Made by a program: the position numbers and the translations under genes | Part shown: positions 450 through 3,191 of the stretch, in pieces | Layout of the letters: the number at the start of each line of letters is the position of its first letter | Numbering within the stretch: the stretch's first letter is position 1 | The notes under the pieces: model-generated | The model's database searches: none | Told to the model about the DNA's origin: nothing | What the model saw: only the letters and a program-made list of their open reading frames with translations | Assembly: GCA_043799545.1 (NCBI GenBank) | Contig: JAZDNO010000001.1 | Coordinates: forward strand, 1-20,353 | DNA from: Methanobacteriota archaeon | GTDB taxonomy: Archaea; Thermoplasmatota; Thermoplasmata; SG8-5; DAIRED01 | DNA length: 20,353 nt | Direction: 5' to 3'

Positions 450-660
450 AAGGGTCGGCGGGAAAGCGATTTAACAGCAGGGGGCACAGAACCGTTTCGT
501 AACGAAGTCCAGCTCCTCGGCTGAGAACTTCATTGTATTGACGAGATGTCGCGTGGATGCTCGCGTTCAGGATCCAGCCCATCGTTGAACATTTTAAGGT
601 GCTTTATTTGTAGAAATCCCCATATTGAGTTGCCCGAATTAGTTACCAGAAAAAATTAGG

Positions 661-726
661 TGCTCCCGTCGGGACTGGTGGCAAGGAAGCCGGTTTCCAT
701 TTCTTGCCAACGGGCCAGATGGGAGT
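661..726 (-). repeat. Hairpin carrying a 14-bp copy of the tRNA-Glu 3' end (att-like remnant or degenerate tRNA-like unit)
   Basis: TGCTCCCGTCGGGA at 661-674 is identical to 755-768. Inner inverted repeats are TGGCAAG/CTTGCCA and CTGG/CCAG. The distal end (ACTCCCATC on the minus strand) resembles the tRNA 5' end. Confidence 0.6.
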
Positions 727-754
727 ATTGGTTCGGAACAATAAAAATTGTAAA

Positions 755-827
755 TGCTCCCGTCGGGATTTGAACCCGAGTCGAAGCCTCGAGAGGGCTT
801 CATGATTGGCCACTACACTACGGGAGC
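755..827 (-). tRNA. tRNA-Glu(CTC), no intron, CCA not encoded
   Basis: The reverse complement is GCTCCCGTAGTGTAGTGGCCAATCATGAAGCCCTCTCGAGGCTTCGACTCGGGTTCAAATCCCGACGGGAGCA. It has a 7-bp acceptor stem, anticodon stem AAGCC/GGCTT with loop CTCTCGA, T arm TCGGG-TTCAAAT-CCCGA and discriminator A, followed by a T-tract. Confidence 0.97.
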
Positions 828-932
828 GGTTGTCAGAGGTTTTTCTGCGTAGCTCCCGTATGTGCACGGACGCGGCCGCAGCCAGGCGTCCAGTGCCTAC
901 GGGAGCGGTTATCAGAGGTTTTACTGCGTAGC
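818..932. repeat. Two 36-bp direct repeats (34/36 identical, period 79) that include the first 10 nt of the tRNA
   Basis: ctacgggagcggttgtcagaggtttttctgcgtagc (818-853) versus ctacgggagcggttatcagaggttttactgcgtagc (897-932). Confidence 0.9.
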
Positions 933-1045
933 GACCGTTGTGCCCAGACGTGCCGCAGCATACGTCTGGCCCATGGGAGCGCGCGATGCCATCCCGTATG
1001 TGCGCCGACGTGCCAGCAGGCATACGCCCAGCGCCTACGGGAGTG
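852..1045 (-). ncRNA. Array of three related tRNA-acceptor-like hairpins (852-906, 931-980, 990-1045), putative structured RNAs in the tRNA-Glu leader
   Basis: The units share a bulged-stem architecture with compensatory substitutions. Loops are c(UGCG)g in two units and c(UGCU)g in the third on the minus strand. The basal stem GCUCCCGUA/UACGGGAGC starts with the same sequence as the tRNA. Expression is not shown. Confidence 0.55.
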
Positions 1046-1095
1046 AGATTTACTCTCTCGTGTGTCCGCTTGGCACCGCCCCATTGCGCGAACCC

Positions 1096-1108
1096 TTTAA
1101 TACCTTTC
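1096..1108 (-). promoter_or_regulatory. Putative BRE-TATA promoter for the hairpin array plus tRNA-Glu
   Basis: The minus strand reads GAAAGG-TATTAAA. No TATA-like element is visible directly upstream of the tRNA itself. Confidence 0.5.
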
Positions 1109-1113
1109 GCGAA

Positions 1114-1132
1114 GAGGATGCCGGGCATCCTC
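1114..1132. promoter_or_regulatory. Perfect 9-1-9 palindrome between divergent promoters, candidate operator
   Basis: GAGGATGCC-G-GGCATCCTC. Confidence 0.4.
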
Positions 1133-1139
1133 CCACCCC

Positions 1140-1151
1140 AAAAGGTAAATA
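1140..1151 (+). promoter_or_regulatory. Putative BRE-TATA promoter for the surface-protein gene
   Basis: AAAAGG-TAAATA lies about 27 nt before the GTG at 1179, consistent with a near-leaderless transcript. Confidence 0.45.
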
Positions 1152-1178
1152 TCCGCACGGGCATGACCCGTCTAGAGG

Positions 1179-3191
1179 GTGAATTCCATTCGTTTCCAGG
1201 TAGTATCTGGCGCGTCGATTTTGATGATCGCGGTCCTCCTATTCGGAGCCTTCGCATCTGGAGCAAATCGTGCCCCGAGCGCGCCTGAACCATCGGAGGT
1301 GGGCGCACCCACAACAGCAGCGGGCGCCGACACGACTTTCGACATCCCAGTCCAGCTCGGATGGAACTTCATCTCGGTTCCTCTGGTGCAGTGGAACACA
1401 ACGATATTGGCTGTGCTCGACGACCATGATGGGAACAAGGATACGAATTGGACGCTGGCGCAGTGGATGGACCCAGTGACAAAGGTGTGGAAGAACTACA
1501 ATTGCTCCCTGCCGGCCAACGACCCCCTGAACGATCTCAGCCAGGTGAACCATACGATGGGCATATATGTGAAGATAACGGACCCGGGCAGCGACAGTGC
1601 GCTCCGCGTCAACGGGACGGTGCCGGGCGCTGTGAATATACCATTATACGAGGGATGGAACATGATCGGCTACCCGACAATAGATGACTCGGCACTCAAC
1701 GTCAGTTCCCTAAAGGCTTCCACCGATGTCACAAGCGTTCAGAACCGCGACCGCCTGGATTACCCCGGTTCGTATGTCCTCAAGCGCGGCGAGGGATACT
1801 GGATGAACGCGAGCTCGAACTGCACTTGGACCATCAACAACACAGTCTTGGGCCCGCTGCCAGTCATCACCCTTATTTCACCGGCCAACAACTCCGTGTT
1901 CACACCGGGGACCATTATCGATTTCCGCATCAACGGCAGCTCGCCCCATGTGACATTCTCCGTAAGCGGGGGGCCATGCGGCAATCTCTCTGCGCCTTAC
2001 GACCTGAGAACAGGCAACTGGTCCGACGGAGTAACCATCGTAAACATCTCCGCTGAGGATGCCAACGGGACGGCCAACAGGAGCTATCGCTTCGTCGTCG
2101 ATTCCCAGGTGCCGAATATCATTCTCGTATCCCCGGCAGAAGGAAGCAAGCTGCGGGCGGGCCAGATTCTGGATTTCAACGTCACCGAGGACAATCTGGC
2201 AAGCGCGAACTACACGAACGGCATATCCGTTGTAAACTTCACGGCGCCTTTCGATATCGACACCACGGGATGGCCATCAGGGCTGGTATCATTGACTATC
2301 AATGCAGTCGATCTGGCAGGCAACATTGCGACCGATTCGTTCAAGTTCGATTTCGACGGCACCAGGCCAACAGTGACCGTCACGACGCCAGTCAACGGGA
2401 GCATGGCTGTCAGGGTGGACGCCAAACTTGTGCTCCATTTCTCGGAGCCGATGAACCGGACCGCGACCGAGAGCGCGCTGTCTATCACGCCGACCGTGGG
2501 GTTCGGGACCTTCACCTGGAGCTCGGCAGACAGGCAAATGACCGTGGTTTTATCAGAAAACATGACCCAGAGCACGAGGTACCGGGTCAGCCTGAACGCG
2601 CTTGCGAGGGACACCGTCGGCAACAGCATCAACTCGACATATCGCTGGGAGTTCACCACATGGCTCGACACGGACGGCGACGGACTGCCCAATAACCAAG
2701 ACCAGGACGACGACAACGATGGGTACATGGACCAGATGGATGCGTTCCCGCTGGACCCGACAGAATGGGCCGACACGGACGGAGACGGAATAGGGGACAA
2801 CGCCGACCTGGACGACGACAACGACGGTATCGCGGACATCAACGACGCATACCCCCTGGACAAGTACGAGAGCGCAGATTCGGACGGAGACGGCGTCGGG
2901 GACAACCAGGACGCTTTCCCCAACGACCCGACCGAAACGAAGGATTCAGACGGCGACGGCGTGGGAGACAACGAAGACTTCCTCCCCTACTTCGACAACA
3001 ACCTGTTCTACGTTCTGGTGCTCGTGGTCCCTTGCTTCACGGCAATCATCGTGACCTGGCTCGTGACAAGGTCCAGACATCGTAGGATGGCCGCGGAGAA
3101 GACCCACGCGCCAAAGGACTGGACCGCGGAGCAGCCGCCGACAAAGAAGACCGAGCCGCACGACCCGATGGCTCCACCGCCCGAGGACTGA
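1179..3191 (+). CDS. Membrane-anchored cell-surface protein: signal peptide, GWN-motif domain, Ig-like domains, thrombospondin type-3-like Ca-binding repeats, C-terminal TM helix
   Basis: Hydrophobic N-terminus, paired LGWNFISVP/EGWNMIGYP motifs, many N-x-S/T sequons, an Ig-like segment (LHFSEPMNRTATESALSITP), DxDGDG repeats, TM segment LFYVLVLVVPCFTAIIVTWLV followed by RSRHRR. Confidence 0.85.
   Translation: MNSIRFQVVSGASILMIAVLLFGAFASGANRAPSAPEPSEVGAPTTAAGADTTFDIPVQLGWNFISVPLVQWNTTILAVLDDHDGNKDTNWTLAQWMDPVTKVWKNYNCSLPANDPLNDLSQVNHTMGIYVKITDPGSDSALRVNGTVPGAVNIPLYEGWNMIGYPTIDDSALNVSSLKASTDVTSVQNRDRLDYPGSYVLKRGEGYWMNASSNCTWTINNTVLGPLPVITLISPANNSVFTPGTIIDFRINGSSPHVTFSVSGGPCGNLSAPYDLRTGNWSDGVTIVNISAEDANGTANRSYRFVVDSQVPNIILVSPAEGSKLRAGQILDFNVTEDNLASANYTNGISVVNFTAPFDIDTTGWPSGLVSLTINAVDLAGNIATDSFKFDFDGTRPTVTVTTPVNGSMAVRVDAKLVLHFSEPMNRTATESALSITPTVGFGTFTWSSADRQMTVVLSENMTQSTRYRVSLNALARDTVGNSINSTYRWEFTTWLDTDGDGLPNNQDQDDDNDGYMDQMDAFPLDPTEWADTDGDGIGDNADLDDDNDGIADINDAYPLDKYESADSDGDGVGDNQDAFPNDPTETKDSDGDGVGDNEDFLPYFDNNLFYVLVLVVPCFTAIIVTWLVTRSRHRRMAAEKTHAPKDWTAEQPPTKKTEPHDPMAPPPED
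2667..2987 (+). repeat. Coding TSP3-like (DxDxDGxxDxxDAFPxD) repeats
   Basis: DTDGDGLPNNQD, DTDGDGIGDNAD, DSDGDGVGDNQDAFPND and DSDGDGVGDNED in the translation. Confidence 0.85.

Follow-up and report, generated by a model that had tools for sequence, protein, structure and literature searches.

Each of three hairpins in front of a tRNA-Glu(CUC) gene begins, on the tRNA strand, with the 5′ end of that tRNA and closes with an inverted copy of it. This raises the question of whether such an array encodes small RNAs that mimic a tRNA acceptor stem or is the trace of a process acting on the DNA of tRNA gene edges. The array lies in the window analysed here, the 20,353-nucleotide contig C11 of G000, a 2.06-Mb, 58% G+C, 94%-complete assembly of an uncultured Thermoplasmata archaeon. 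The nearest relatives of its deoxyhypusine synthase come from uncultured Thermoplasmata MAGs, among them an SG8-5/'Proteinoplasmatales' MAG. A sequence-only reading had proposed the first answer. We favour, with slightly better than even confidence, an account of the second kind, in which a fast-turnover, gene-less DNA module of ~79 bp borders tRNA-Glu, -Gln and -Asp genes on their 5′ side and is passively co-transcribed as their leader. The features of the locus are given below in the direction of transcription. R1 denotes a covariance model built from unit plus spacer, and the promoter matrix is a position weight matrix from 18 module-free G000 tRNA promoters.

1094-1108, minus strand: BRE/TATA-type promoter box of the tRNA-Glu(CUC) transcription unit; promoter matrix 10.3 bits, the top score of the leader.
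991-1044, minus strand: unit 3 (distal), with a slightly decayed 5′ copy ACUCCCGUAG and inverted copy UACGGGAU; R1 52 bits.
981-990, minus strand: short spacer of 10 nt after unit 3.
931-980, minus strand: unit 2, decayed, with 5′ copy GCUCCCAUGG and an inverted copy that is the ACGGUCGC variant; R1 56 bits over 907-980.
907-930, minus strand: spacer 2, UACGCAGUAAAACCUCUGAUAACC, A/T-rich, promoter-like and partly palindromic; 90% identity to spacer 1; matrix 7.4 bits at 908-921.
852-906, minus strand: unit 1 (tRNA-proximal), in which the 10-nt tRNA 5′ end is copied perfectly and, after the inner hairpin and ACA, a 9-nt inverted copy follows that is perfect too; R1 88 bits.
828-851, minus strand: spacer 1, UACGCAGAAAAACCUCUGACAACC, with a small CAGA/UCUG hairpin inside; matrix only 2.8 bits.
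755-827, minus strand: tRNA-Glu(CUC) gene; ARAGORN, and Rfam RF00005 at 60.2 bits.
739-754, minus strand: T-rich tract uuuacaauuuuuauug abutting the tRNA-Glu 3′ end, a likely archaeal terminator judging by its sequence; the same layout stands behind most G000 tRNAs.
661-728, minus strand: downstream module, with an inverted copy of the tRNA 3′ end ACUCCCAUC (2 mismatches), an inner hairpin and a direct 14-nt copy of the 3′ end UCCCGACGGGAGCA; found by repeat search.

The array is a period-79 tandem repeat, since spacers 1 and 2 are 90% identical, as are positions 818-859 and 897-938. The stable, homologous hairpins claimed upstream of tRNA-Glu are real. On the tRNA strand unit 1 folds at -39.3 kcal/mol (z -6.2; 0/200 shuffles equal it), unit 3 at -30.4 kcal/mol (z -4.0) and unit 2 at -20.7 kcal/mol (z -1.4), the last with its apical stem and c(UGCG)g loop intact, as had been noted, and its basal stem decayed. 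The basal stem of unit 1 does reproduce the acceptor stem, containing all 7 bp of it and 2 further pairs (GCUCCCGUA/UACGGGAGC). Compensatory swaps had also been read between units 1 and 3. Those from GCAC/GUGC to GCGC/GCGC and from GGC/GCC to GCC/GGC stand, while the 6-bp helix is compensated only in part (4 Watson-Crick pairs, 1 G-U pair and 1 mismatch).

The downstream module at 661-728, a fourth module of the locus that the earlier reading had missed, is followed by a T-run at 647-657. It folds at -24.1 on the tRNA strand versus -37.0 (z -5.2) on the plus strand, and its orthologues in the congeneric genome G001 and metagenome contig L191 keep the flanks, with a different inner core in L191.

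A module of ~79 nt consists of tRNA bases 1-10, an imperfect inner hairpin with a UGCG loop, an inverted copy of bases 1-9 and an A/T-rich spacer of ~24 nt; the direct copy reaches up to tRNA base 13 in some relatives. Bases 1-10 are followed on the 5′ side by a G, a 4-bp helix, a U bulge, a 6-bp helix, a 2-nt bulge, a 2-3-bp helix and the UGCG loop; the 3′ side comprises the returning strands of the three helices, ACA, the inverted copy and the spacer. In unit 1 the inner hairpin reads 4 bp, U bulge, 6 bp, CU, 3 bp and UGCG loop. The 3′ arm inverts the 5′ end of the tRNA rather than repeating its 3′ end directly, and runs on into the complement of U8 and A9, and up to that of base 13 in relatives. 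The whole forms an irregular helix of ~22 bp closed by a 4-nt loop, which is not a 12-bp acceptor/T minihelix, and the 69 nt between the direct repeats of a unit hold no ORF. Decay of the basal stem is recurrent, being seen in unit 2 and in the ACGGUCGC and ACGUGAGC variants.

The bulged ACA had been likened to a relaxed bulge-helix-loop site of the splicing endonuclease. A bulge-helix-bulge (BHB) site consists of two 3-nt bulges on opposite strands with a 4-bp helix between them. In the units ACA does lie beside a 4-bp helix on the 3′ strand, but its 5′ partner is a single U (a U-U mismatch in one unit subtype) and an extra G stands opposite ACA, so that the resemblance fails. In the conserved CACA one may see what is left of the complement of tRNA bases 10-13 (GUGU), and with this the ACA bulge can be explained without a splicing motif. 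The tRNA-Asp units of sister families still carry the perfect 13-nt complement. A tRNA-intron reading, with the unit spliced out between identical copies, was likewise rejected, there being no BHB around the junctions in either fold.

No known RNA family had been recognised in the leader, and this held. Rfam, both at gathering thresholds and at E up to 1, matched only the tRNA at 755-827 and nothing in 828-1110, and ARAGORN called the same single tRNA, with no cloverleaf in 828-1110. The tRNA and pseudo-tRNA readings of the units were therefore dropped, as the models recognise only 755-827. Run on related Thermoplasmata genomes and metagenome contigs, R1 returned 30 units in 7 related genomes and 3 metagenome contigs (L191, L196 and L201). 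Five are in G000 (three in the window, one before tRNA-Glu(UUC) and one before tRNA-Gln(UUG)), nine are in G001, and further units occur in G002, G003, G008, G012 and G015. Each of the 30 immediately precedes either another unit or a gene for tRNA-Glu, -Gln or -Asp, and none is solitary.

The basal stem tracks the identity of the adjoining tRNA. The outer arms are GCUCCCGUAG/UACGGGAGC in Glu units and GCCCUGGUAGUG/ACCAUGGC in Asp units, while in the Gln units of G001 they are AGUCCCGUGG/CACGGGACU, matching that genome's own tRNA-Gln, which starts AGUCCCGUGG. Within the G001 Gln array the two proximal units carry AGUCCCGUGG…CACGGGACU, and likeness to the tRNA falls step by step in the distal ones. 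Modules of the same logic with unrelated cores occur at other G000 tRNAs (Thr/Asn, Met/Ile, Gly, Cys and class II) and at the tRNA-Glu genes of sister families. Permutation tests on the G000 tRNAs agree with a wider habit: 11/37 have their own first 10 nt copied upstream (control mean 1.4, maximum 4) and 13/37 their own last 10 nt copied downstream (control mean 0.8, maximum 3). The units specific for tRNA-Glu, -Gln and -Asp are one instance of a broader habit of the order that has apparently gone undescribed, the literature searched containing no account of such modules.

Close relatives allow arrays to be compared behind orthologous promoters. Before tRNA-Asp there are 0 units in G000, 1 in G001 and 2 each in G002 and G003. 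Before tRNA-Glu(UUC) there are 1 in G000, 3 in G001, 2 full units and a truncated relic in L196, and 3 and a relic in L201; before tRNA-Gln, 1 in G000 and 5 in G001; before tRNA-Glu(CUC), 3 in both G000 and G001 and 2 in L191. The tRNA-Asp site, empty in G000 and filled in G001 with the same promoter ahead of both, differs by the unit and a 12-13-nt direct repeat of the gene start; the empty site can equally stem from deletion between direct repeats. Cores and flanks are also reshuffled. The core GCGCUCGACGCCUGGCUUCGGCCGCGUCGGCGC has different flanks in the G001 Glu(CUC) array and in L191, near-identical cores are shared by the G000 Glu(UUC) unit and one G001 Gln unit, and the same 33-nt inner core is seen with different inverted copies, spacers and neighbouring tRNAs. 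Conversely, orthologous flanks enclose different cores, and the inner cores before tRNA-Glu(CUC) differ among the genomes compared. From one close relative to the next, arrays thus lengthen, shorten and trade their inner cores.

Direct repeats of a tRNA segment around foreign DNA are a hallmark of tyrosine-integrase insertion, and each unit could be an attL/attR pair with an arm remnant, left after near-total deletion of an element at the tRNA 5′ end. Tyrosine integrase genes do lie beside G000 tRNAs, one of them right behind tRNA-Glu(UUC) (C10:219117-219668). The uniform ~79-nt design with its inverted copy and covarying hairpin, the tandem arrangement and the recurrence of the design with unrelated cores at other tRNAs all speak against such an origin, as does the absence of units by covariance model from the viral contigs scanned (100 of 123 IMG/VR stretches, themselves the output of two exact-pattern scans). 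A simple att scar was set aside, with only 69 nt between the repeats and no ORF, integrase or cargo in them. We regard the integrase origin as very improbable.

The 30-unit alignment shows strong covariation, although it is model-guided, having been fitted to the covariance model, and so favours pairing scores: 89% of the cells are paired versus 27-42% with the partners slid, 14/19 pairs are changed on both sides, and double-change cells number 101 versus 33 in shuffles. Some structure is maintained in the units. The units contain 12 G-U and 11 A-C cells, whereas 456 pairs in the acceptor and T stems of G000 tRNAs, pre-selected for ≤1 non-standard pair each, contain 19 G-U, 0 A-C and 0 other mismatches. 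The sense-minus-antisense folding energy averages -0.06 kcal/mol, with the sense strand better in 14/30 units. Because pairing is equally good on both strands, the data do not argue for maintenance at the RNA level, and a DNA hairpin, or selection for Watson-Crick pairs alone, fits equally well as RNA structure. Something nevertheless reads the structure, as the conserved U bulge, CACA and UGCG loop and the strictly Watson-Crick covariation show; such a reader could act at the RNA level.

As had been claimed, the only good BRE/TATA box by matrix lies upstream of all three units, at 1094-1107, where its 10.3 bits exceed the 99.9th percentile of background. The orthologous box is kept in G001 (L004) and in L191. 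Internal promoters in the spacers were considered and rejected. The spacers do contain BRE/TATA-like sequence, but it ends 1-5 nt before the next copy: the spacer 2 box at 908-921 (7.4 bits) ends 1 nt before the next unit, and that of the tRNA-proximal spacer, at 2.8 bits, ends 1 nt before the gene, versus 21-40 nt upstream for real boxes. No T-run terminator interrupts the array, and a sigma-70 and terminator scan, which is not applicable to archaea, returned nothing useful. Since the only good promoter is upstream and no T-run lies within, the array is very probably transcribed as the 5′ leader of pre-tRNA-Glu. Loss of RNase P in the lineage, considered as a candidate, is ruled out, as five further genomes of the order do contain its RNA (RF00373), at scores below those elsewhere in the class; it was not found in the 94%-complete G000 assembly.

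Such a transcript had been read as polycistronic, yielding tRNA-Glu and three small mimic RNAs. A shared leader is the part of this proposal that is likely to hold; dedicated mimic RNAs are not. Functional small RNAs released by RNase P or RNase Z, whether acceptor-mimicking decoys or substrates or a regulatory leader, would suit the probable co-transcription, a basal stem that equals the acceptor stem and follows the tRNA, the strong covariation with conserved apical loop and bulges, and the normal though low-scoring RNase P RNA of the order. They fit poorly with 0 to 5 copies among close relatives, decayed basal stems and shuffled cores, with the lack of a G-U excess over A-C (12 vs 11, against 19 vs 0 in the filtered tRNA stems) and of any strand preference in folding energy, and with units that have no T-arm-like element, no BHB geometry and no matching Rfam family. 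Because copy number varies within a genus, basal stems decay and cores are shuffled, the units do not look like dedicated tRNA-mimic RNA genes, and we consider functional small RNAs of any of these kinds decidedly doubtful.

The module account explains the same data as follows. A module would have been inserted or duplicated at the 5′ edges of tRNA genes in one uncultured Thermoplasmata lineage, and a recombination or insertion process on short direct repeats would then alter the arrays. With the only good promoter on the far side of the array from the gene, the long structured leader would be transcribed passively and presumably removed by RNase P, and acceptor mimicry would be a by-product of gene-end duplication. 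The process is confined to gene ends, leaves a direct and an inverted copy around a hairpin, and shows expansion, contraction and core exchange. These traits look more like gene-end duplication or insertion than purpose-built decoy RNAs. Each unit family is limited to tRNAs with similar 5′ halves, which fits either homology-dependent spread (ectopic conversion) or sequence-guided insertion.

The inverted copy may be retained for a mechanical reason. In silico, a naked spare 5′ copy is predicted to capture the tRNA 3′ acceptor strand with probability 0.997, whereas in a growing transcript the unit hairpin would already be complete at 55-100 nt, when the tRNA 3′ end is still far from being made. 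The spare 5′ end would then be locked in a local hairpin that forms first during transcription and therefore would not compete with the real 5′ end for the acceptor strand. This insulation idea rests on kinetic, co-transcriptional folding, because for the natural unit equilibrium RNAfold favours the swapped pairing by 5.5 kcal/mol. In this modelling, early hairpin formation may explain both why duplications are tolerated only when self-paired and why the basal stem matches the tRNA. The insulation is not kept up without exception, because in many units the 5′ copy is perfect and the inverted copy carries mismatches.

What might move such modules is a separate matter, for which an IS200-type gene offers a lead. 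In E. coli, a Y1 transposase reads REPs, each consisting of GTAG and an imperfect hairpin (PMC3479197). The junction between tRNA copy and hairpin falls right after GTAG (tRNA positions 7-10) in Glu and Asp units, so that GUAG stands at the 5′ foot of the inner hairpin. The units could accordingly be REP/IS200-type non-autonomous single-stranded DNA elements whose hairpin is recognised, whose inverted copy guides them to the tRNA 5′ end and whose direct copy restores the gene, with a Y1 (HUH) transposase acting in trans, cutting after …GUAG| and pasting. The conserved bulges and strand-symmetric Watson-Crick pairing would suit a DNA hairpin, and an IS200-type Y1 gene (G000:C25:29915-30367) has one full-length orthologue in 16/22 genomes of the order, including 7/7 of those at least 90% complete, at 54-89% identity. 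A Y1 gene that is single-copy and passed on vertically follows the pattern of RAYTs (bioRxiv 10.1101/2024.07.17.603846). Moreover, the 3′ flank of the Y1 gene carries an imperfect hairpin and, 4 nt beyond it, a pseudo-tRNA 5′ part, an arrangement conserved across families.

Several observations weigh against this origin. The Y1 proteins fit the NCBIfam IS200/IS605 models (113 and 109 bits) and reach only 40 and 19 bits with RAYT against a cut-off of 80, the protein of G000:C25:29915-30367 scoring 109 and 19 bits, respectively. The hairpins flanking the gene are unlike the Glu-type core and are not dispersed, BLAST of the Y1 gene flanks against the genome having returned no dispersed copies. 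The G001 Gln units have GTGG (GUGG in the RNA) in place of GTAG, junctions fall at other tRNA positions in the other module families of G000, Y1 relatives occur also outside the order and some are multicopy, and IS200/IS605 elements are not known to make target duplications. We therefore consider a REP/IS200-type origin unlikely, and treat the Y1 transposase as a candidate mobiliser of the units on circumstantial grounds. A fuller version, which we hold to be quite unlikely, would make the units an archaeal counterpart of REPIN-RAYT: single-stranded DNA hairpin elements moved in trans by Y1, with the inverted copy as a programmable guide of 9-13 nt, the spare gene end making insertion harmless and the arrays forming a fossil record of past tRNA 5′ ends.

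If the module description holds, many tRNAs of a whole archaeal order arise from precursors whose leaders, 80-400 nt long, consist of acceptor-mimicking hairpins. For tRNA processing this poses the question of how RNase P chooses its site among several look-alike stems, and for genome evolution it would represent a process that copies gene ends both directly and inverted, in units that turn over between species. Should the Y1 transposase drive the modules, Archaea would have their first REPIN-like, guide-bearing system. On the practical side, the units can mislead the annotation of tRNAs and small RNAs in metagenome-assembled genomes.

Compared with known systems, the units share single traits with several. 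Integron attC sites were rejected as a match, the unit ends being tRNA-derived (GCUCCCGUAG / UACGGGAGC) with no GTTRRRY (R''/R' = RYYYAAC … GTTRRRY). Like t-elements and mascRNA-type signals, the units place an acceptor-like stem, a potential RNase P target, inside a longer transcript; unlike them, they have no T-arm or elbow and turn over fast, and the only match of the mascRNA model, a sub-threshold one, was to the tRNA itself. The attL/attR sites of tRNA-targeting integrases also carry a direct repeat of a tRNA segment, with an incoming copy that restores the gene, but the units are 79-nt periodic, have an inverted copy, lack integrase and cargo and target the 5′ end.

Two resemblances go further. 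Tandem, tRNA-adjacent repeats that each contain a copy of a tRNA end and are co-transcribed with the gene occur at E. coli tyrT as the 178-bp repeats and rtT RNA. The tyrT/rttR locus is mentioned in bioRxiv 10.1101/2024.07.17.603846. The units similarly lie beside a tRNA in tandem at period 79, each starting with the first 10 nt of the tRNA, whereas those of E. coli are found downstream, reproduce the 3′ end alone and are not known for an inverted copy, a covarying hairpin or a genome-wide habit. An Rfam search of the leader gave no rtT match, and the resemblance is best taken as analogy, not homology. With REP/REPIN-RAYT systems and the ends of IS200/IS605 elements and of the gene-free derivatives of these (PATEs) the units share an imperfect palindrome with conserved bulges, a preceding GTAG, occurrence in arrays and a lineage-conserved single-copy Y1 gene. 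Many dispersed extragenic copies would be expected of REPs, whereas G000 has five units, all before tRNA-Glu or -Gln. The units also have a 9-13-nt inverted target copy and a direct repeat, and the transposase types as IS200. Membership in that class was rejected on these grounds, with copies not dispersed, no gene of RAYT class and Y1 flanks unlike the units. As analogies, the E. coli tRNA-linked repeats and the REP/IS200-type hairpin elements are the nearest to the units described here.

When the entire putative tRNA-Glu(CUC) precursor (window 755-1075) is folded at equilibrium, the acceptor stem of the tRNA has a probability of 0.0, and the 3′ strand of the tRNA is taken up by the unpaired 5′ copy in hairpin unit 2, the decayed one. 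As modeled, tRNA-Glu(CUC) could mature properly only if it folded co-transcriptionally or were cleaved early. The tRNA and all of the hairpins are also spanned by a 223-codon open frame on the minus strand (window 643-1314), which is almost certainly spurious, such frames being typical of G+C-rich sequence.

A motif that is BRE/TATA-like and in part palindromic (CAGAaaaaccUCUG, AAGGaaaaCCUU, AAAAGCUUUU and CAAAcgcUUUG) recurs in the spacers, both in the window (828-851 and 907-930) and at loci L002, L004, L033, L034 and L039, with covariation between its two halves. A role for this motif as promoter of the next copy was considered and rejected because the distance to that copy is too short.

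On the other side of the tRNA, the downstream module (661-728), which carries copies of the tRNA 3′ end, folds at -37.0 kcal/mol (z -5.2) on the plus strand versus -24.1 kcal/mol (z -1.9) on the tRNA strand; the mismatched positions read A-C on the tRNA strand and become G-U on the plus strand. Since this folding bias toward the plus strand is absent among nine other downstream modules of the same genome (5/9), it may be due to chance.

Genes for a transposase, a candidate mobilizer of the units, and for integrases lie near other tRNA genes of the genome under study (G000).

Transposase and integrase genes near tRNA genes in G000
C25:29915-30367 (= L208:1459-1914), IS200/IS605-type Y1 transposase, adjoining a class II tRNA at C25:30497-30582
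C10:219117-219668 (L211), tyrosine integrase, directly behind tRNA-Glu(UUC) at C10:218939-219012, on the opposite strand
C25, further integrase gene near tRNA-Val
C12, further integrase gene near tRNA-Arg

Exactly one full-length Y1 orthologue (identity 54-89%) is present in each of 16 of the 22 genomes of the order, including all seven that are at least 90% complete. On its 3′ side the Y1 gene is flanked by an imperfect hairpin and, 4 nt further on, by a pseudo-5′ part (~55 nt) of the neighboring tRNA, an arrangement kept in G000 and two related genomes (G004 and G007). A similar hairpin and pseudo-5′ part, without a transposase, precede the tRNA at C24:88554. The stretch immediately 3′ of tRNA-Glu(UUC) is kept in the related genome G001.

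In another order of the class, in a genome (G029) where no Y1 transposase was found, the first 34 nt of tRNA-Glu(CUC) are copied in its upstream leader (locus L021). This copy is interrupted after base 13 by a hairpin-rich insert of ~190 nt, and is followed by a 23-nt spacer and the real tRNA-Glu(CUC) gene.

A search of the G000 assembly for RNase P RNA (RF00373) gave no hit. The RNase P RNA of the order seems unusually divergent: it scores 127-157 bits in the five further genomes tested from the order, against 165-232 bits for the most part elsewhere in the class.
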